IMG/VR virus record: IMGVR_UViG_3300025016_000004
Strand: one strand, 5' to 3'
Origin: a virus
Lineage: Duplodnaviria; Caudoviricetes
DNA: 64,000 bases
Part shown: positions 8,645 through 59,678 of the stretch, one piece after another
Layout of the letters: each line of letters begins with the position of its first letter
How positions within the stretch are numbered: position 1 is the stretch's first letter
Notes under the pieces: generated by a model
Seen by the model: the letters and a program-made list of their open reading frames with translations, nothing else
Database searches by the model: none
Told to the model about the DNA's origin: nothing
Program-made: the position numbers and the translations under genes

Positions 8645-8702
8645 AAAAAAACTTGTTTTATATTGAAACATTATGTATATTTGCACTATATATTAATAAC
8701 AA
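8645..8702 (+). promoter_or_regulatory. Bacteroidota sigma-type promoter P1, one of four near-identical copies
   Basis: TTG 8653-55 and TATATTTG 8676-83. Confidence 0.8.
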
Positions 8703-8731
8703 GACGGGTGAATACCCTAAAAAATTAGAAA

Positions 8732-8839
8732 ATGCAAGCAATAAGTATTATACATATTATGAGTTCGATAAATTGGAGACGTAATTCTTCAGTAGTGTCA
8801 GGTATGTCTATACTTAATAGTGGAAATTGGTTTGGTTAA
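8732..8839 (+). CDS. Leader peptide 1: MQAISIIHIMSSINWRRNSSVVSGMSILNSGNWFG
   Basis: Codons 4-20 are all I/S/H/M/N/W/R; contains antiterminator TGTCAGG at 8796-8802. Confidence 0.85.
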   Translation: MQAISIIHIMSSINWRRNSSVVSGMSILNSGNWFG

Positions 8840-8867
8840 CAAATTAATAAAACAAAAAGATAAGATG

Positions 8868-8901
8868 AAAATCCTGACAGAAATGTCAGGATTTTTTTTT
8901 T
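8868..8901 (+). terminator. Attenuator terminator 1
   Basis: AAAATCCTGACA-GAAA-TGTCAGGATTTT plus U-tract. Confidence 0.9.
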
Positions 8902-11892: not shown

Positions 11893-11979
11893 GGGTGAGT
11901 AGCTCAGTGGGCCAGAGCGGTTGATTGTTAATCAAAGGGCCTTTATAGGTTTACGTGGGTTCGAATCCCACCTTGCCCT
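11893..11979 (+). tRNA. trnN: tRNA-Asn(GTT) with a long variable arm
   Basis: GTTGA-TTGTTAA-TCAAA; 18-nt variable region. Confidence 0.8.
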
Positions 11980-12167
11980 CAAATCTTAATAATTATGGAA
12001 AAATGTAGTTAAAGAATTGGTTCAAAATTTAAGAGCCAGTGGGATTAACGTCACATATTATGATAATCCAAGTAAAGAAAAGATTGAACGTATTAATAAA
12101 CGTTTGGTAGAATTAAGAAAAAGAAATTCCTTTTAGTCCCTGAAGAAATTCAAACTTTAAGGTGCAA

Positions 12168-14028: not shown

Positions 14029-14256
14029 AAGCGAAAGCTGAAGCTTTAATTATTGTTAAACCAAATGTTAATTGGATTAAAAAATTCTGGGAATCAATAT
14101 ATAATTGGAAAAGATAGAAATATAAGTGGAATCAAAAATTAGATAGAATAGTAAATTTTGATGATAATAAAAATAATTCAATCAGAATTCTATACCTGTT
14201 AAAATAAAAAGATAAAAATACTTTGTTTTTTAAAAAACATTTCGTATATTTGCATC

Positions 14257-42492: not shown

Positions 42493-42544
42493 TATTTATT
42501 TGTGTAAGACTTAATAAATTCATATATTTGTACTATAAAAATTA

Positions 42545-43126
42545 ATGATGGAAGACGAGCAATTTGAGAAAGCTAAAAGATTTTTAAATGAGAAAAAAAT
42601 TCCCATATCTGAGGAAATTTTAAACTTATTTTTTAATGGTATTGAAAATGTGACAATAATCACTGAGGAAGACCTTAAAACAATTGATTTTAAAACTCTA
42701 GGTGATGCTGATGATATTAAAACAATATCAGGTACTGAGTGGGTAGCTTCTAGATTAATCTGGAATACCCTTGATGGACCAATATGTAGCGTTAATTTAA
42801 TTAAAATAGGCCAATTTAACCTTAAAAACCCCTTTGATATTATGAATGGATTATATTCCAATAAACCAAATTACCCATACGGTAAAGAAAATGTTATAGA
42901 TATTGATTACGAAGATATATTACCTTTACCATTTACAGAACAGTTAGCACTTGCAATAGAAGTTGAAGATTTTGAAGAAGCGGCAAGATTGAGAGACTGG
43001 GATACTGGTCTTAAAAATTTATTATTAAAATTAAAACCCCTAATACTAGACGCACTTAAAAAAGAAGATGTTACAAAATTAGACGATTATTTAACTCAAA
43101 TTAGGGATTACCGAAAAACATTATAA
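42545..43126 (+). CDS. Hypothetical protein with a UVR-like motif
   Basis: AIEVEDFEEAARLRD. Confidence 0.6.
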   Translation: MMEDEQFEKAKRFLNEKKIPISEEILNLFFNGIENVTIITEEDLKTIDFKTLGDADDIKTISGTEWVASRLIWNTLDGPICSVNLIKIGQFNLKNPFDIMNGLYSNKPNYPYGKENVIDIDYEDILPLPFTEQLALAIEVEDFEEAARLRDWDTGLKNLLLKLKPLILDALKKEDVTKLDDYLTQIRDYRKTL

Positions 43127-43485
43127 TGAAAGTTAGTTTTGATTTTGATAGTACGCTATCAACACCTTTAATTCAAAGGTTGGCTAAACGTCATATTAAA
43201 TATGGTGACGAAGTTCATATTACCACCACTAGGCAACATGAAGATGATAGTCTAGGGTTTACAAATGAGTATTTATATAAAGTGGCCAATAGATTAGGGA
43301 TTAAAAAAGAAAATATACACTTTACCAAATTTCAAGATAAAGTTCATTTTCTTAAAACATTCGATATGCATTATGATGATGATGAGCATGAAATCGATTT
43401 AATCACAAGGTCAGACCTACCATGCTTAGGTATTCTTATAAATTATAAGAATTATTACCTTGATAATGAGGAAGTTAAAAAATAA
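43126..43485 (+). CDS. HAD-superfamily-like protein
   Basis: SFDFDSTL; HYDDD. Confidence 0.7.
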   Translation: MKVSFDFDSTLSTPLIQRLAKRHIKYGDEVHITTTRQHEDDSLGFTNEYLYKVANRLGIKKENIHFTKFQDKVHFLKTFDMHYDDDEHEIDLITRSDLPCLGILINYKNYYLDNEEVKK

Positions 43486-43500
43486 TTTAAAAAAAAGTAT

Positions 43501-43557
43501 AAAAAAACTTGTTTTTTATTTAAACAATTACTATATTTGCACATATATATTAACAAG
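43501..43557 (+). promoter_or_regulatory. Promoter P2
   Basis: TTG 43509-11; TATATTTG 43532-39. Confidence 0.8.
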
Positions 43558-43626
43558 AGATAGGATAATACATCTGGACAAACCCAAATGGGAAAGGATT
43601 GAATCTGAACAGTCTCTTAAATAAAA

Positions 43627-43710
43627 ATGAAAATGAAAACTTTAGTAACTTTATTATCTTTATGTCTGTTGGTCGTGTGTACTGACACATCGAGTTATGT
43701 AATTACTTAA
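43627..43710 (+). CDS. Leader peptide 2: MKMKTLVTLLSLCLLVVCTDTSSYVIT
   Basis: 11 of codons 6-18 are L/V/C; antiterminator ACATCGAGTT at 43687-96. Confidence 0.85.
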   Translation: MKMKTLVTLLSLCLLVVCTDTSSYVIT

Positions 43711-43742
43711 AGGATTTATTTATATATTTTTTAAATTGTTAT

Positions 43743-43775
43743 AAAAGCTCGATGTTAACGCATCGAGCTTTTTTA
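43743..43775 (+). terminator. Attenuator terminator 2
   Basis: AAAAGCTCGATG-TTAACG-CATCGAGCTTTTTT. Confidence 0.9.
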
Positions 43776-43776
43776 T

Positions 43777-43861
43777 GCACTAGTGCTCCGAGTGGTCGAA
43801 GGGGGTGGTCTGCAAAACCGCCAGAGAAATCTCAACGTTGGTTCGAATCCAACCTAGTGCT
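43777..43861 (+). tRNA. trnC: tRNA-Cys(GCA) with a long variable arm
   Basis: GTGGT-CTGCAAA-ACCGC; U73. Confidence 0.9.
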
Positions 43862-43873
43862 CAAAATAAAAAT

Positions 43874-43959
43874 GCGGCCATAGTTCAGTAGGTCAAGAGC
43901 ACCACCCTTACAAGGTGGGGGCGAATAGTATAACGGGGGTTCGAATCCCTCTGGCCGCA
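43874..43959 (+). tRNA. trnV: tRNA-Val(TAC) with a long variable region
   Basis: CCACC-CTTACAA-GGTGG. Confidence 0.85.
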
Positions 43960-44019
43960 CAACAATTGTGAGGCCATCTGTTATGTTGCAACATAAAATG
44001 ATGGTCTGAATATCTAAAT

Positions 44020-44151
44020 GAGCGTATGGTGAAATTGGTAGCCACGGGGACCTAACCGTCTTAATGACTAGCCGCAGACTTGCCATCTGGGTTGAAGGGT
44101 GAACCCTCTGTTATAGGCATATACGTATAGGTTCGAATCCTATTGCAGTTA
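44020..44151 (+). pseudogene. tRNA-Leu-like gene with a ~55-nt structured insertion
   Basis: Leu-type D-arm and T-arm; inserted hairpins. Confidence 0.5.
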
Positions 44152-44164
44152 TTTAGATGATAAT

Positions 44165-44250
44165 GGGGATGTGGTGGAATTGGTAGACACGCTGGTTTTA
44201 AGCATCAGTGCCTCGAAAGGGGCGTGTGGGTTCGACTCCCACCATCCCCA
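44165..44250 (+). tRNA. trnL: tRNA-Leu(TAA)
   Basis: Type II cloverleaf. Confidence 0.92.
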
Positions 44251-44255
44251 CAATT

Positions 44256-44329
44256 GGCCCCATAGCTCAGTGGTTTAGAGCGTCTCTTTTACACGGAGAA
44301 GGTCTTAGGTTCGATTCCTAATGGGGCTA
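44256..44329 (+). tRNA. trnV: tRNA-Val(TAC)
   Basis: Canonical cloverleaf. Confidence 0.92.
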
Positions 44330-44493
44330 CATGAAAAATTGGAATAAAATAATAGCACCAAAAGTTGAAATGTCTATGAATGAATTGGTTAAAACAAAGT
44401 CATCAAATATAGAAGGTTATTTTGAAATAATAGAAAAATTAACATGTAGTAAAATAATAAAAAACGATAATAATATATCAATTTTTATGTAAG

Positions 44494-44570
44494 CACCCCC
44501 ATGGTGCACGTTGGAATGCACAACAGGTTTAAGCCCTGTCGTTTCGTGGGTTCGATTCCCACTGGGGTAC
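44494..44570 (+). tRNA. tRNA with anticodon TAA (Leu) but a short variable loop
   Basis: ACAGG-TTTAAGC-CCTGT; 6-nt variable loop. Confidence 0.78.
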
Positions 44571-44910
44571 AAAATTAAAATTATGGAAATTAGAATAACA
44601 AAAACTCCGTATTCAATATTTAAAGATGTTCCAAAAATTAACTATTTTTGGGTATATAGAAAATATAAATATGTGAAAGGGTTTCGTTTTAGGTTTTTTG
44701 GTTATAATTTTAACGTAACTGAAAATTTTGCAACATATAAATTAATCAATAAGTTTAAAAACAATGAAAACGCATACAATTGAAGTTTCGGAAGTTGACA
44801 TGAAAGGTTCTAAATATGAAATTAGTGAATGGCATAAACGAGTTGATGTTGTTAGGTGGGAACATGACTATGAAGATAAAATATATAGAATTACAATTAG
44901 AATAAAATAA

Positions 44911-44947
44911 CCCTCTATGCTGTACGTTGGAATTCAGCGTGGCTTTT
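44911..44947 (+). pseudogene. 5' half of a split tRNA-Leu
   Basis: CCCTCTA pairs with TAGAGGG at 45181-87. Confidence 0.75.
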
Positions 44948-44961
44948 ATTATTATTAAACT

Positions 44962-45048
44962 GCCCTTATGAGCAAAATGGCAAAGCTTGCTGGTTTAGAC
45001 CCAGTGGAAAACATAAGAAACGTTCTCAGTTCGACTCTGAGTAAGGGT
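44962..45048 (+). tRNA. trnL: tRNA-Leu(TAG)
   Basis: GCTGG-TTTAGAC-CCAGT; long variable arm. Confidence 0.88.
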
Positions 45049-45099
45049 ACAATCCGAAGTATTAATTTTAAAGTAAAAATAATTTAATTTTTCCTAACT

Positions 45100-45188
45100 G
45101 TTACGGATAACGCAATTAGAAAATGGATTAAAAGTTCTTTAAGTAAGTAGACCCCACGATTTCGTCAGTTCGATTCTGACTAGAGGGA
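45100..45188 (+). pseudogene. HNH C-terminal remnant (VTDNAIRKWIK) fused to the 3' half of tRNA-Leu(TAG), 45148-45188
   Basis: The remnant stop codon TAG is the anticodon. Confidence 0.75.
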
Positions 45189-45221
45189 CTTTGGAACTTT
45201 TGTACCTTTCTACATATTTAT

Positions 45222-45268
45222 ATTTTGGAGCGTAAAACCCATTGGTCTTTAGCTAATGGGTAGTTCAC
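45222..45268 (+). mobile_element. IS200/IS605-derived mini-MITE
   Basis: TTTAT flank; GAGCGTAAAACCC...GGGTAGTTCAC. Confidence 0.75.
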
Positions 45269-45538
45269 TGAAAATCTACACGCAATGGCCAAAGATTTAA
45301 ACATCAAACGATGTTGATTCCATAAGAATCACTATGATATACCAAAAAAACGTATTGAAGAAATTACCAAATAATGCACATTGGTATCCCCTAGAGATAT
45401 TCATAAAATAATACATAATCTATAATACTGGTATTTAGTCGAATAAGTTTTGTAGCTAAAATAATAACAATTATTTTAGCTAAACTATTGATTAATACTA
45501 TTTATTGAATATATTAGGTATATAAAATAATTAATATT

Positions 45539-45733
45539 ATGACACAAACAGAAAAAGCTGAAAGATTTGAAAGCTTAACAAGAGAAAGTGATGTTATCCA
45601 AAGGGAGATATCAAAATTACAATCAGCAAATGCTGGTATTAACACAACATCCGAAGAATACGATAATAAACTTAATCATTTAAGACATAGGTTATCAATT
45701 TTAGAACAAGAGATGGTAAAATTATTTATATGA
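45539..45733 (+). CDS. Small coiled-coil protein
   Basis: ORF track. Confidence 0.6.
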   Translation: MTQTEKAERFESLTRESDVIQREISKLQSANAGINTTSEEYDNKLNHLRHRLSILEQEMVKLFI

Positions 45734-46044
45734 ATCTAAATGAAAATTTAAACGAAGAATTAGTTGAAGCATTAAAAAATATCTACCCAATTAGAGAAAA
45801 TCTAAGGAAGGAGTTGTTAAAAACTTATGATGAAGAATTATTAGATAAATTAAATGCTTTGAATAAAATGATTGAGAATGCTGAAATTTTAATCAACAAA
45901 TCTCAAGATGTTAAAAAGTTTTATGCTGAACAATACCCTGATTATGTCGATGAAAACAATCATATCAACGAAATAGGTATAAATAGAATAAGCATTTTGA
46001 AAAAAAAATGGAAAAAATTAGGCTATCTAAAAAAGAATTCATAA
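45730..46044 (+). CDS. Hypothetical protein
   Basis: ORF track. Confidence 0.6.
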   Translation: MNLNENLNEELVEALKNIYPIRENLRKELLKTYDEELLDKLNALNKMIENAEILINKSQDVKKFYAEQYPDYVDENNHINEIGINRISILKKKWKKLGYLKKNS

Positions 46045-46070
46045 ATTAGCCGAATTAAAATTAGAAAAAC

Positions 46071-46520
46071 ATGAAAAAAACAGCCCTACTTGTATTATTA
46101 ATGTTGACATTAACCTTTAGTTTTGGACAAACCAATGGGTCAGTAATTATGAACGATTCACTTATTGTTCAATATCTTGAGGAATTCGTTGACGAAGCCG
46201 CCCAAAATGGCTACGATATTCAAGAACAATTATTAAGTAAAGTTAGTTATATACTAATAGCAAAAGAGGATAAGCAAATTGAAGGTTTATCTGAAATTGA
46301 TTTGAATAACAAATTAATCTTATTGGACCCCAAAGTTCGTTTAGATAGATTAATATTAAAAGCAAGGCTATATAGAGAGTTATGTCACGCTTTAGGTGTA
46401 CCATATGACACTGGTAGTGTTATGATGGATAGGGTTAAAGAAAAAGGTTTTTCTTATGTGGCATTTGATGATTCTGAAATACTTAGCATTGAATTAGGTA
46501 AAGTTCTGAAATTAATTTAA
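46071..46520 (+). CDS. Exported protein
   Basis: Signal peptide. Confidence 0.65.
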   Translation: MKKTALLVLLMLTLTFSFGQTNGSVIMNDSLIVQYLEEFVDEAAQNGYDIQEQLLSKVSYILIAKEDKQIEGLSEIDLNNKLILLDPKVRLDRLILKARLYRELCHALGVPYDTGSVMMDRVKEKGFSYVAFDDSEILSIELGKVLKLI

Positions 46521-46580
46521 AAAATCAAGGTTTTAATTAATTGAAAATCAAATAATTTAAAAATAATTTAAAAATAATTG

Positions 46581-46638
46581 CAAAAAAATTTGTTTTATAT
46601 TGAAACATTTACTATATTTGCACTATATATTAATAACG
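46581..46638 (+). promoter_or_regulatory. Promoter P3
   Basis: TTTG 46589-92; TATATTTG 46613-20. Confidence 0.8.
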
Positions 46639-46668
46639 GTATTAATAAAGTACCACAAAATAAAAGTA

Positions 46669-46764
46669 ATGAGAAACTTAATTAACATATTTGAAAACGA
46701 ATTTTTCGCAGCCGAGGCAGATTTTAGCTTGGGTAGGATGAGAATTGTCAAAAATGAAAGTTAA
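46669..46764 (+). CDS. Leader peptide 3: MRNLINIFENEFFAAEADFSLGRMRIVKNES
   Basis: 11 of codons 8-19 are F/E/A/D; antiterminator GGATGAGA at 46736-43. Confidence 0.85.
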   Translation: MRNLINIFENEFFAAEADFSLGRMRIVKNES

Positions 46765-46796
46765 GTTATTTAAAAAATAATAAAAACAATAAGACA

Positions 46797-46829
46797 AAAT
46801 CTCATCCAAATCGGATGAGATTTTTTTTT
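46797..46829 (+). terminator. Attenuator terminator 3
   Basis: AAAATCTCATCC-AAATC-GGATGAGATTTTTTTTT. Confidence 0.9.
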
Positions 46830-46838
46830 GTTATAAAC

Positions 46839-47423: not shown

Positions 47424-47514
47424 AACAGTACCAGCGCATAACGGTTGGTGTACCTGACTGTCACTCAGGTTTGGTTTATCCATGTAGCGGGTTCGACTCC
47501 CGTTGTAGTTGCCA
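47424..47514 (+). tRNA. trnD: tRNA-Asp(GTC) with a long variable arm and encoded CCA
   Basis: ACCTGA-CTGTCAC-TCAGGT. Confidence 0.7.
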
Positions 47515-48649: not shown

Positions 48650-48715
48650 GGGGGTATCGTCTAACTGGTTAGGATAGCTATTGGTAAGATATGGGTTCGA
48701 GTCCCATTGTTTCCA
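48650..48715 (+). pseudogene. Glu-type tRNA with a deleted anticodon arm
   Basis: D and T arms intact. Confidence 0.6.
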
Positions 48716-48726
48716 AAAAATTAATA

Positions 48727-48801
48727 TGGTTTATCGTCTAAATGGCAAAAGATACTGTGCGTGTCAGTACAGAGATGGAGGTTCGAGCCCTCCGAAAACC
48801 G
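48727..48801 (+). pseudogene. Asp-type tRNA with an 8-nt anticodon loop
   Basis: CTGTG-CGTGTCAG-TACAG; G73. Confidence 0.6.
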
Positions 48802-48808
48802 CAATATG

Positions 48809-48844
48809 GGGGGCACATGTACCAAGGCAAGGCGTTGGACATTT
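48809..48844 (+). pseudogene. 5' half of a split tRNA-Ala
   Basis: GGGGGCA pairs with TGTCTCC at 49622-28; GGACA pairs with TGTCC. Confidence 0.75.
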
Positions 48845-48891
48845 ACCTAAACTTATGTGGTCGTTTCGATTATTTTGTGATATTTATTAAT

Positions 48892-49533
48892 ATGAAAGAA
48901 TGTCCAAAGTGTGGTAATAACCACCATAAAAAGGGTAAGTTTTGTTCTAGGTCTTGTGCTAATAGTAGAACTTGGTCCAAAGAAGATAAAAGTAAAAAAT
49001 CTGAAATCGCTAAAAAATCTGAAAAAGTTTTATTGGCCAATCGTGACCCTGAAAGAAGAAAGAATCTCTCAATATCAGCAAAAGCCCAAGCAAAAGTTGG
49101 TAACATTAATTGGAGTAAATTACATACTAAAGATGTTATTAACAAGGCCTTAAAAACTAAAAAGCTTAAAAGGGAACTATGGTTAGATTCATTTGATAGG
49201 AGTGATAAAATTGAATACCGTAAAGCTTGTAAATTTAAATTTAGTCTTAATTCATACCCAGATAAATTTGATTTTTGGTTGATTGAAGAGTATGGCTGGT
49301 ATAAAGCTAAAAATATGGGTGACAATCCAAATGGGATAAGTAGAGACCATATGTACTCAATTAGTGAAGGATTTAAAAATGGTGTTGACCCGTATTATAT
49401 TAGTCACCCAGCCAATTGTAAATTAATGAGGCATGGTGAAAATAATAAAAAAGATGGTAAAAGTAGTATTAATCTAGAAGATTTAATAAAAAAAGTTAAT
49501 AAATGGGATAATAAATATGGGCCGTTAGCATAA
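48892..49533 (+). CDS. HNH homing endonuclease
   Basis: CPKC..FCSRSCA; SRDHMYS...HPANC...N; true start at 48892. Confidence 0.82.
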   Translation: MKECPKCGNNHHKKGKFCSRSCANSRTWSKEDKSKKSEIAKKSEKVLLANRDPERRKNLSISAKAQAKVGNINWSKLHTKDVINKALKTKKLKRELWLDSFDRSDKIEYRKACKFKFSLNSYPDKFDFWLIEEYGWYKAKNMGDNPNGISRDHMYSISEGFKNGVDPYYISHPANCKLMRHGENNKKDGKSSINLEDLIKKVNKWDNKYGPLA

Positions 49534-49591
49534 ATGGCAAATGCTCTTCATTTGCAATGAGGAAGATTGGGTTCGAATCCCAGCGTGTCCA
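49519..49591 (+). tRNA. trnA: tRNA-Ala(TGC), overlapping the HNH stop; acceptor stem imperfect
   Basis: CTTCA-TTTGCAA-TGAGG; G3:U70. Confidence 0.75.
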
Positions 49592-57394: not shown

Positions 57395-57862
57395 AATAAT
57401 AATATTATGACAACTATGACAATTCTAAAAAACTTCCATATGGGAACCATAAAATGTTTTCCATGGAAAATAAATTTCTTGCACATGTAGATACCAAACG
57501 TATGAATTGGTATCTAGATAGGGATTTAGCTATCATGTTAAACGAATATAGATACCAATCATTTTTAAAAGGGGCTATCCAAATCACCTGGTTCACCAGC
57601 CGAAGAGAGAAACTTCAAGCCCTTTTTATTTTTTAAATGCTGAAAATCAAGTAGTTAAAAAAAGTTTAAAATTTTTTGTTATTTTACTTGTTTTTTAAAT
57701 ATATATTATGTACATTTGCAGAGTAAAAATAGGAAAGTTATAATGAGGCGAAATCATTATAAAACAACTTTAAGTGAGGCTCTTAAAACTTTTTTAAAAA
57801 AAATCGCAAAAAACTTGTTTAATTAAAAAATAAGTTGTATATTTGCACAAGAATTAAAATAC

Positions 57863-57878
57863 GTTCATTAAAATATTG
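57863..57878 (+). promoter_or_regulatory. boxA-like motif downstream of tandem promoters
   Basis: GTTCATTAAAATATTG; TATATTTG at ~57838. Confidence 0.45.
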
Positions 57879-57886
57879 AAAATAAT

Positions 57887-58706
57887 GGGGTGCTTATGCT
57901 CCTTCCTTCGGGAAAAGATAAACCTAGTGATAGGTATAAAGTGATGTCCAAACAAGGCATTGCGTTGAGGGCTTTCGGGTCAACAATCTGTGTAAGCATA
58001 TTAACTACGAACAAGGGTCAATGGCTGAATGGCTGAGATTAACGAGTTCACTCCCTAGCTTCGGGGAGTTGAGATAGAAATATCAATAGGCGGTTAGTAG
58101 ATTTCGGTTGAAACGTGTAAAAAGCGGATAGGCTGATTTCATCATGATTTGTTATGGAATGTTTAATAATGATGCTTCATTATAATCTTGGGAAACCAAG
58201 CGTTATATTAAGTTAAGTTAATTTGTAAATCTAAGTAATGAAGAAATGATGTGGTGGTAAAACACTGCAACGGGGTGTCGTAAACTAAACTGGTCAAAAG
58301 CCAGCACGTTTGTCAACTGCTAGACACATCCTGTAAGAGAGAGCATCGCTAATCAATTAGGTGGGGCGATAGCCCAACCACTTTTATGTTAAAAAAGCAA
58401 AGATAAGTAAAAGTTCTAGCGGTCACGGATACAAAATTAAGTTATCCCACTGAAATATGTGGGCAGTTATTAACCTCACAAGGGTAACGCTGAAACGGAG
58501 ACTAGGTATCGTTAGTAGGAGGGTCGCACCTTCTCATCCTCGCAAGGGAGCTAGGTAGTGAAATTGGTTTATATCAATCTGTGGTAAAAGAGTTTGCAGT
58601 CACTCCAAGACTGTCTTAATGATGCCTACCAAGTGGAAACATGAGGTGTGTGAAATAGGGAAACCGAAAGCAAAAGGTATTACAAGGGCCCAACACTCAA
58701 GCCTTT
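57887..58706 (+). ncRNA. Giant structured ncRNA, GOLLD-like
   Basis: ~820 nt with no ORF, GC-richer than its flanks, many GNRA/UUCG hairpins, adjacent to tRNA-like genes. Confidence 0.62.
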
Positions 58707-58708
58707 AA

Positions 58709-58780
58709 CGGAGATATCGTCTAATTTGAAGACACTTCCTATTGCTGGAAGGTAATGTAGTATCAAATCTACCATTCCGA
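58709..58780 (+). pseudogene. Degenerate tRNA
   Basis: CTTCC/GGAAG stem; aberrant loop and T-loop. Confidence 0.5.
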
Positions 58781-58844
58781 CTATAAAATGAATATGTGAA
58801 TACATGACGATATGAGTTGCCTACCACACATATTCATTTTGAAA

Positions 58845-58934
58845 GGCGCAGTAGCTCAATTGATAGAGCGTGTTGAAACATCCGATAAACGGTTGAAGTA
58901 GGCAAGGTTGGTGGTTTGAGTCCATCTTGTACCA
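58845..58934 (+). ncRNA. tRNA-like RNA with an expanded anticodon loop
   Basis: Canonical acceptor, D and T arms; CCG-ATAAA-CGG insert. Confidence 0.55.
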
Positions 58935-59429: not shown

Positions 59430-59487
59430 AAAAAAACTTGTTTTATATTAAAACATTTACTATATTTGCACTATATATTAATAACAA
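59430..59487 (+). promoter_or_regulatory. Promoter P4
   Basis: TTG 59438-40; TATATTTG 59461-68. Confidence 0.8.
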
Positions 59488-59511
59488 GGGTAAATCCCAA
59501 AATAAGAAATA

Positions 59512-59610
59512 ATGAGAAATTATACAACATATACGAAACAGTATCAACCGAAGGGCGGGAAGTCCCAAGGTCAACTGAGTATACGTTGTAGTGACATAAC
59601 AGAATTCTAA
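59512..59610 (+). CDS. Leader peptide 4: MRNYTTYTKQYQPKGGKSQGQLSIRCSDITEF
   Basis: Codons 4-17 are all Y/T/K/Q/P/G; antiterminator TCAACTGAG at 59571-79. Confidence 0.85.
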   Translation: MRNYTTYTKQYQPKGGKSQGQLSIRCSDITEF

Positions 59611-59640
59611 TGTAGAATATAGTTATATAAACAATATATA

Positions 59641-59678
59641 AAAACCCAGTTGATAAAACAATTTCAACTGGGTTTTTT
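59641..59678 (+). terminator. Attenuator terminator 4
   Basis: AAAACCCAGTTGA-loop-TCAACTGGGTTTTTT. Confidence 0.9.

Follow-up and report, generated by a model that had tools for sequence, protein, structure and literature searches.

The second of four related cassettes in a stretch of viral DNA of 64,000 nucleotides, to which we refer as the window, probably encodes a transcription attenuator of the trp/ilv kind, by which ribosomes translating a leader peptide govern a phage tRNA operon, a reading to which we assign a probability of roughly 0.7. The DNA, which originates from a large uncultured phage, is AT-rich, with a GC content of about 30%. At least 33 tRNA genes, without exception on the plus strand, are present besides genes for an HNH endonuclease and TnpB. 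Within positions 43501-43775, a promoter is followed by a 5′ UTR of about 80 nt, a leader ORF, an AT-rich spacer and a terminator. The genes that it would control, all on the plus strand between 43777 and 45050, encode tRNA-Cys(GCA), tRNA-Val(UAC), an uncalled structured RNA (about 44029-44160), tRNA-Leu(UAA), a second tRNA-Val(UAC), a second tRNA-Leu(UAA) and tRNA-Leu(UAG). The first-pass annotation had described the region as an attenuator located upstream of genes for tRNA-Cys, two tRNAs for valine and several for leucine, which agrees with the tRNA order Cys, Val, Leu, Val, Leu, Leu. The proposed function finds support in silico in an ORF that is open in homologues, in codons that match the downstream tRNAs, in a terminator abutting these genes, in a covarying antiterminator and in a geometry that fits control by a ribosome.

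The promoter of cassette 2 resides in a block common to the four cassettes, which in their alignment spans 43485-43553 on the plus strand. It contains a TTG at –33 (43509-43511) and the –7 element TATATTTG (43532-43539), together with a conserved start region of sequence TATATATTAA. This TTG/TAnnTTTG layout is shared by the cassette promoters and corresponds to what we take to be the sigma-A consensus of Bacteroidota. Ordinary gene promoters of the phage at 14245, 28403, 40822 and 42523 show the motif TATATTTG(C/T)A(C/T) followed by an ATG, which is located 1-2 nt downstream of the motif in the first three cases and 11 nt downstream at 42523, and the respective mRNAs would therefore be leaderless or nearly so. 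Unlike at these genes, the leaders following the promoters of the tRNA cassettes have a length of 40-85 nt. Another TATATTTGCAC promoter, in the region 57838-58850, precedes about 900 nt of elevated GC content, which extend up to a weak tRNA match (58845-58934), and no Rfam family was detected at gathering score in this region.

At the other end of the cassette, direct folding identifies an intrinsic terminator on the plus strand (43743-43774), composed of the arms AAAAGCUCGAUGU and GCAUCGAGCUUUU connected by UAAC and followed by a U-tract. It constitutes a perfect hairpin of 13 bp with a folding energy of –17.3 kcal/mol (z = –6.7), and part of its 5′ arm (43746-43755, AGCTCGATGT) is the same segment that is used by the antiterminator described below. 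Since only 2 nt separate its end from the start of the gene for tRNA-Cys at 43777, there is no space for any promoter in between. The hairpin is absent from the output of a generic scan for sigma-70 promoters and terminators because its A/U-extended stem consumes the T-run that the scan requires after a stem. In a blastn search of the region 43000-46000 against cultured and deposited phages, the tRNA genes found matches and the leader did not.

The leader ORF on the plus strand (43627-43710, stop codon at 43708-43710) comprises 27 codons and encodes the peptide MKMKTLVTLLSLCLLVVCTDTSSYVIT. Its start is located in an A-rich context lacking a Shine-Dalgarno sequence, as is the case for the long ORFs of the window, and type-2 relatives, which carry the same kind of leader, begin at the equivalent of the second ATG at 43633. 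Codons 6-18 (43642-43680, plus strand) form the putative sensor block TTA GTA ACT TTA TTA TCT TTA TGT CTG TTG GTC GTG TGT. The block LVTLLSLCLLVVC, for which a leucine, valine and cysteine content of 11 out of 13 residues and four TTA codons had been claimed, is present in this ORF as described, and the same 11 codons can be decoded by the downstream tRNAs Leu(UAA), Leu(UAG), Val(UAC) and Cys(GCA). Leucine, valine and cysteine occupy 11 of the 18 positions between residues 2 and 19, compared to a background of 15.4% (binomial p = 1.3e-5). TTA, which accounts for 64% of the leucine codons of the phage and is read by tRNA-Leu(UAA), is accompanied by TTG, CTG, GTA, GTC, GTG and TGT, and the block also includes codons for threonine and serine, neither of which is served by this operon. 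Two of the codons, CTG and GTC, are rare, making up 1% of the leucine and 5% of the valine codons of the phage, respectively, and both are part of one arm of a hairpin within the ORF. The nucleotide conservation of the block, including these rare codons, could thus in part reflect the hairpin instead of codon sensing. For cysteine, a single codon (Cys 13) is conserved, and a ribosome stalled at Cys 18, which is specific to the window, would cover part of the antiterminator strand.

The relationship between leader codons and downstream tRNAs extends to the three sister cassettes, whose architecture was proposed to be the same. This is borne out by the alignment of the four units, which begin near 8653, 43509, 46590 and 59438 and have promoter, ORF, terminator and antiterminator logic in common. 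A promoter block of about 80 nt, nearly invariant among them, is found nowhere else in the window. Each unit contains an ORF of 27-35 codons, whose 3′ part includes a copy of the 3′ arm of the terminator, and this terminator adjoins a tRNA cluster. All three sister units are located on the plus strand. Cassette 1 (8653-8901; ORF 8732-8839, MQAISIIHIMSSINWRRNSS...; terminator 8868-8901) precedes tRNAs for His, Trp, Ser, Ile, Leu, Met, Asn and Arg, cassette 3 (46590-46832; ORF 46669-46764, MRNLINIFENEFFAAEADF...; terminator 46796-46832) tRNAs for Asp, Phe, Glu and Ala, and cassette 4 (59438-59678; ORF 59512-59610, MRNYTTYTKQYQPKGGKSQGQ...; terminator 59641-59678) tRNAs for Pro, Lys, Thr, Tyr, Gln and Gly. 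Among residues 2-19 of each peptide, amino acids of its own tRNA group account for 16 of 18 in leader 1 (binomial p = 5e-7), 11 of 18 in leader 2 (1e-5), 11 of 18 in leader 3 (4e-4) and 15 of 18 in leader 4 (1e-5). In a 4×4 table of full leaders versus tRNA groups (chi-square p = 5e-11), the true assignment ranks first of the 24 permutations, and the same diagonal, relating each leader to its own tRNAs, is obtained at the level of codons when wobble rules are applied. If tRNA-Ala(UGC) is counted, every one of the 20 amino acids is served by only one of the four clusters, except for Leu, as a Leu(CAG) resides in cluster 1, and possibly Glu, for which cluster 4 may contain a further tRNA.

Several of the tRNA genes show unusual features. 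The gene for tRNA-Ala(UGC) at 49519-49591 was found by Rfam only. An ORF of 263 residues without Pfam match (48742-49533) is located amid weak tRNA-like matches (48650-48715 and 48728-48801), and ARAGORN reads the region 48650-49591 as one tRNA with an insert of 687 nt, which may represent a tRNA gene into which a mobile element has inserted. A long extra arm is found in tRNAs of 86-91 nt at 43777-43862, 43874-43960, 47424-47514 and 11893-11980, whose anticodons (Cys, Val, Asp and Asn) normally belong to short-arm tRNAs. Normal copies of about 74 nt for Val, Asp and Asn are located nearby, at 44256, 46839 and 12199. Finally, the region 43965-44160 between tRNA-Val and tRNA-Leu contains an uncalled structured RNA, whose 5′ end (GCGTATGGTGAAATTGGTAG) resembles that of tRNA-Leu and which includes a T-arm. 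In an aquifer RNA library (X24), a contig that is 100% identical to the window joins 44116 to 44131 and in this way skips 14 nt (gcatatacgtatag) that are flanked by 'tatag' repeats and that could constitute a small intron or a strain deletion.

Scanning two promoter patterns against viral contigs and one against metagenome contigs recovered 50 units consisting of promoter, terminator and tRNAs, 41 of them unique in sequence, and an ORF was found in all 50. The recovered cassettes, which reside on phage contigs from marine, freshwater, sediment and groundwater sources, including IMG/VR contigs of 197-360 kb, can be assigned to the four leader families of the window, each of which precedes the same tRNA set as there, and all four types coexist on a single contig of 360 kb (L005, L008, L004 and L006). 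Besides the window, there are nine further type-2 leaders. When scored for relatives with at least three recovered tRNA identities, type-2 leaders match their own tRNA set with a value of 0.59, compared to 0.13 for the sets of other types. The first eleven codons of the sensor block, from TTA at codon 6 to GTC at codon 16, are near-invariant in the nine relatives, where a 3-nt indel within the block of L052 preserves the reading frame, and the region downstream varies together with the terminator. In the distant L124, the leucine, valine and cysteine composition is kept (ILVVTLCLLSNVVLL) with a different order of residues, which fits selection on codon content and not on a particular peptide.

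These relatives also bear on the proposal that the ORF encodes a functional small hydrophobic peptide, such as a lipoprotein or a membrane peptide resembling a signal sequence, which is equipped with its own terminator, with the tRNAs being expressed by incidental read-through. The N-terminal MKMK, the hydrophobic stretch and the sequence LVVC preceding a threonine indeed look like a lipoprotein signal peptide, and the N-terminal 16 residues are highly conserved. The first-pass annotation had considered this likeness misleading, and the comparison bears out that view, as the lipobox Cys 18 is absent in eight of the nine relatives, which contain LVLVT, LVFD or LVVR instead, and the conserved Cys 13 is too near to the N-terminus, following only about eight hydrophobic residues. 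Moreover, the presumed mature tail of 9-20 residues is not conserved and changes along with the terminator arm, the residue order is not maintained in L124, and the three sister leaders are not hydrophobic, yet share the promoter, the layout and the antiterminator logic. A Pfam search with the 27-residue peptide did not identify a match. We thus regard a peptide function as highly improbable.

The attenuator reading requires an alternative to the terminator, and such a pairing had been suggested between the leader and the terminator arm. The predicted helix is found where it was placed, with ACATCGAGTT in codons 21-24 (43687-43696, plus strand) pairing with AGCTCGATGT (43746-43755) over 10 bp including one G-U pair. 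The duplex has an energy of –14.3 kcal/mol, compared to –6.4 ± 1.7 kcal/mol after shuffling of the leader body, where none of 1000 shuffles was as good. In a 4×4 test of the window cassettes, the best pairing partner of each leader is its own terminator arm, and across the 41 unique cassettes the observed pairing total was matched by none of 10000 permutations. Within leader families, own and non-own terminator arms show little contrast for types 1 and 4, owing to terminators that hardly differ in sequence, and the argument for pairing is therefore carried by the cross-family and covariation tests. In the latter, RNAalifold applied to ten type-2 cassettes recovered the antiterminator helix unprompted, with double compensatory changes at four of seven pairs, of which one (alignment columns 227-302) is represented by AU and by GC in five sequences each. 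Paired cells, counted with the in-ORF hairpin included, amount to 92%, a value that falls to 27-47% upon sliding of the 3′ partners by 1-3 columns, and the covariation score was reached by none of 500 shuffles. Terminator sequences differ in L052, L114 and L124, and the ORF segments are matched to each, with AGTTGGG facing CCCAGCT in L052, GCATCAGG facing CCTGATGC in L114 and another different pair in L124. In L093, whose leader peptide is identical to that of the window, the antiterminator strand contains GCT in place of GTT, a synonymous change at 43695 (AGT to AGC, both Ser) by which the helix becomes fully Watson-Crick.

Folding of the nascent RNA up to the 5′ arm of the terminator yields the antiterminator as the minimum-energy structure, in the form of a long composite stem (–22.8 kcal/mol, z = –3.5). 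Directly 5′ of the antiterminator strand, RNAalifold delineates the hairpin within the ORF (43667-43687, plus strand; arms 43667-43672 and 43682-43687), which shows covariation at three of six pairs, also appears in the fold of the nascent transcript and is a candidate for a pause or '1:2-like' hairpin. It adjoins the antiterminator strand without sequestering it, and there is, unlike in trp, no conserved anti-antiterminator. A hairpin at 43673-43693 was considered for this role and discarded, being no better than shuffles (z = 0.17) and not conserved. In the full transcript at equilibrium, the terminator dominates with a probability of 0.98, and the antiterminator must therefore act kinetically. 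This thermodynamic dominance is also what speaks for a constitutive leaky terminator, which would set a fixed tRNA level or provide insulation, with the complementary segment tuning its efficiency and the translation of the ORF having no regulatory role. Such an element would have no need for an ORF whose codons follow the tRNAs behind it across four families and dozens of phages, nor for a complementary strand positioned at a constant distance of 2-5 codons after the codon-matched block, and we consider it unlikely.

The attenuator reading further implies that the position of the ribosome decides between the two structures. We have approached this dependence computationally by masking the RNA covered by a ribosome and calculating how probable it is that the strand in the ORF holds the terminator by its 5′ arm while the 3′ arm has yet to emerge. 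For cassette 2, this antiterminator probability amounts to 0.96 if the RNA is free of ribosomes, remains at 0.92 if a ribosome stalls at codons 9-15 and drops to 0.17 once it occupies the stop codon. Rapid decoding is therefore predicted to favour termination, and stalling at leucine, valine or cysteine codons to favour read-through into the tRNA genes. A ribosome stalled anywhere within codons 6-16 leaves the antiterminator strand free, whereas at the stop codon it masks the strand, and in all families the codon-matched block ends 2-5 codons before this strand. The untranslated leader is predicted to read through, with no structure that would enforce termination when translation does not take place. 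Among the four units of the window, a trp-like three-state behaviour is only found in type 4 (0.1, 0.67, 0.07).

Two features do not find a place in a mechanism that is controlled by a ribosome. In relatives with leaders of 31-33 codons, the stop codon is located 22-28 nt past the antiterminator strand and a terminating ribosome would therefore not mask it. The longer leaders of the type-2 relatives L050, L063 and L065 end in an extra hairpin spanning the stop codon (UUUUCA-UUCG-UGAAAA), which is absent from the window and may stand in for the masking step. The second feature is a structured domain in the 5′ UTR of type-2 leaders (43555-43618, plus strand), identified from folds and alignment, in which the motif AGGAU..AUCUGRACA (AGGAU..AUCUGGACAGUC) occurs twice within a closing stem (43555-43561 with 43612-43618, AAGAGAU/GUCUCUU). 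The stem covaries in L053 and L083, and the domain, which has no Rfam match, appears cloverleaf-like in L008 and L050. A T-box-like function was considered and dismissed after a search for duplexes between the domain and all tRNAs of the window, which revealed nothing specific to those for cysteine, valine and leucine.

Both features would be accommodated if the switch between antiterminator and terminator were real but set by a factor other than the translating ribosome, with the ORF being secondary; this factor could be an RNA-binding protein of phage or host, or an RNA, perhaps acting via the 5′-UTR domain, whose conservation and repeated motif are not accounted for by control through a ribosome. 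However, the domain is missing in L124, halved in L065 and absent from the other three families, its motif being confined to type-2 5′ UTRs, although these families share the same logic. Control by such a factor would also leave unexplained why the amino acid composition of all four ORFs mirrors the tRNAs that follow each of them and why the ORF is always kept open. Neither a T-box nor another Rfam element was found, as the searches of the whole window at the gathering threshold and of the region 43400-46700 at E ≤ 1 returned no match besides tRNAs, including none to the T-box family RF00230. We therefore judge control by another factor to be improbable and favour an attenuator that responds to the ribosome.

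The proposed mechanism would then proceed as follows. Host RNA polymerase would initiate at the Bacteroidota-type promoter at about 43545 and a ribosome would translate the 27-codon leader. If its leucine, valine and cysteine codons were decoded quickly, the ribosome would reach the stop codon (43708-43710) and cover the strand 43687-43696, in which case the terminator hairpin (43743-43774) would form and transcription would end 2 nt before the gene for tRNA-Cys. Conversely, if charged tRNA-Leu, tRNA-Val or tRNA-Cys were short, stalling at codons 6-16 would leave this strand free to pair with 43746-43755 and the polymerase would read into the tRNA genes for Cys, Val and Leu. Four such units would split the 20 amino acids among four tRNA operons, each with a leader written in its own amino acids, resulting in a demand-driven negative feedback on the tRNA supply of the phage. 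The anatomy of the cassette, the correspondence between codons and tRNAs, the alternative pairing with its covariation and the conservation are directly observed, and from them we infer that the ORF is translated, that ribosome and polymerase are coupled and that regulation results. A close coupling of transcription with translation is not known for Bacteroidota, which counts against this mechanism.

Sequencing runs that match the window include many of DNA from groundwater and aquifer samples, from which the window may originate, and only two from RNA libraries, each with a small share of words and represented by contigs of low depth. A contig of read length from one of them (X25) covers 43630-43774, ending where the U-tract ends, and contains a synonymous variant at 43677 (GTG to GTT, both Val). 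We have not counted it as evidence for termination, as its depth is about 2, it is a contig and not a set of reads, and carry-over of DNA is possible.

If the described function is correct, the speed of the ribosome on given codons would sense the product of the operon itself, and the phage would produce tRNAs when needed, for instance upon depletion or cleavage of those of the host, which would provide a regulatory answer to the question of why phages carry tRNAs and when they are used. The split of the amino acids into four groups is a simple and testable design, whose sequences could become codon-specific reporters of translation stress, and the system is widespread, with 41 unique cassettes obtained from two simple promoter patterns. 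As a more far-reaching proposal, to which we give somewhat less than an even chance, large Bacteroidota phages would run a complete demand-sensing tRNA supply, where four codon-matched attenuators spanning the 20 amino acids turn on their operons only upon stalling at their own codons and act as inducible counter-defence switches besides providing feedback, with the type-2 5′-UTR domain as a second input. Such stalling could result from the degradation of host tRNAs or their cutting by anticodon-nuclease defence systems. Phage tRNAs that counter tRNA-targeting defences are described in two reports (PMC10264068, PMC11464382).

Attenuation by leader peptides is a textbook mechanism for the control of amino acid biosynthesis operons and of a few genes for aminoacyl-tRNA synthetases. 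For tRNA genes, we do not know of any such case, and full-text searches of the literature did not retrieve a description of their control by leader-peptide attenuation. Closest in design are the multivalent attenuators of enterobacterial branched-chain amino acid operons, ilvGMEDA (with the leader ilvL) and ilvBN (ivbL), whose leaders contain codons for leucine, valine and isoleucine. As in these systems, a short promoter-proximal ORF of the phage is rich in codons for several amino acids, an antiterminator strand just past these codons competes for the 5′ arm of the terminator and the position of the ribosome would decide between both structures, which for the phage we infer from sequence. 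Unlike ilvL and ivbL, which control biosynthesis enzymes, the phage cassette would control tRNA genes, and it differs in its Bacteroidota-type promoter, the lack of a Shine-Dalgarno sequence, the inclusion of cysteine, the lack of any sequence relationship and of a conserved anti-antiterminator, and in the predicted read-through of an untranslated leader. With trpL, hisL, pheL and leuL, it shares the logic and the geometry, as the regulatory codons end about 13-15 nt upstream of the antiterminator strand and the terminator has a U-tract, whereas each of those leaders responds to a single amino acid and controls a biosynthetic operon. The 1:2 hairpin of trp-type leaders terminates transcription when translation does not occur, a behaviour that in the window is only displayed by type 4 in silico. 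As in T-box riboswitches, the status of tRNA would be sensed by a choice between antiterminator and terminator upstream of translation-related genes, but a T-box binds uncharged tRNA directly and does not need an ORF, whereas the phage leader is an ORF without a match to a T-box model. With respect to the controlled product, the nearest relatives are the leader of pheM-pheST in E. coli and the His leader peptides that precede hisS paralogues in bacilli, the latter described in PMC2965389, where attenuation acts on a component of translation that serves the same amino acid. These leaders control proteins, namely aminoacyl-tRNA synthetases, whereas the phage cassette would control the tRNAs themselves, and its sensor would therefore read the availability of its own output directly.
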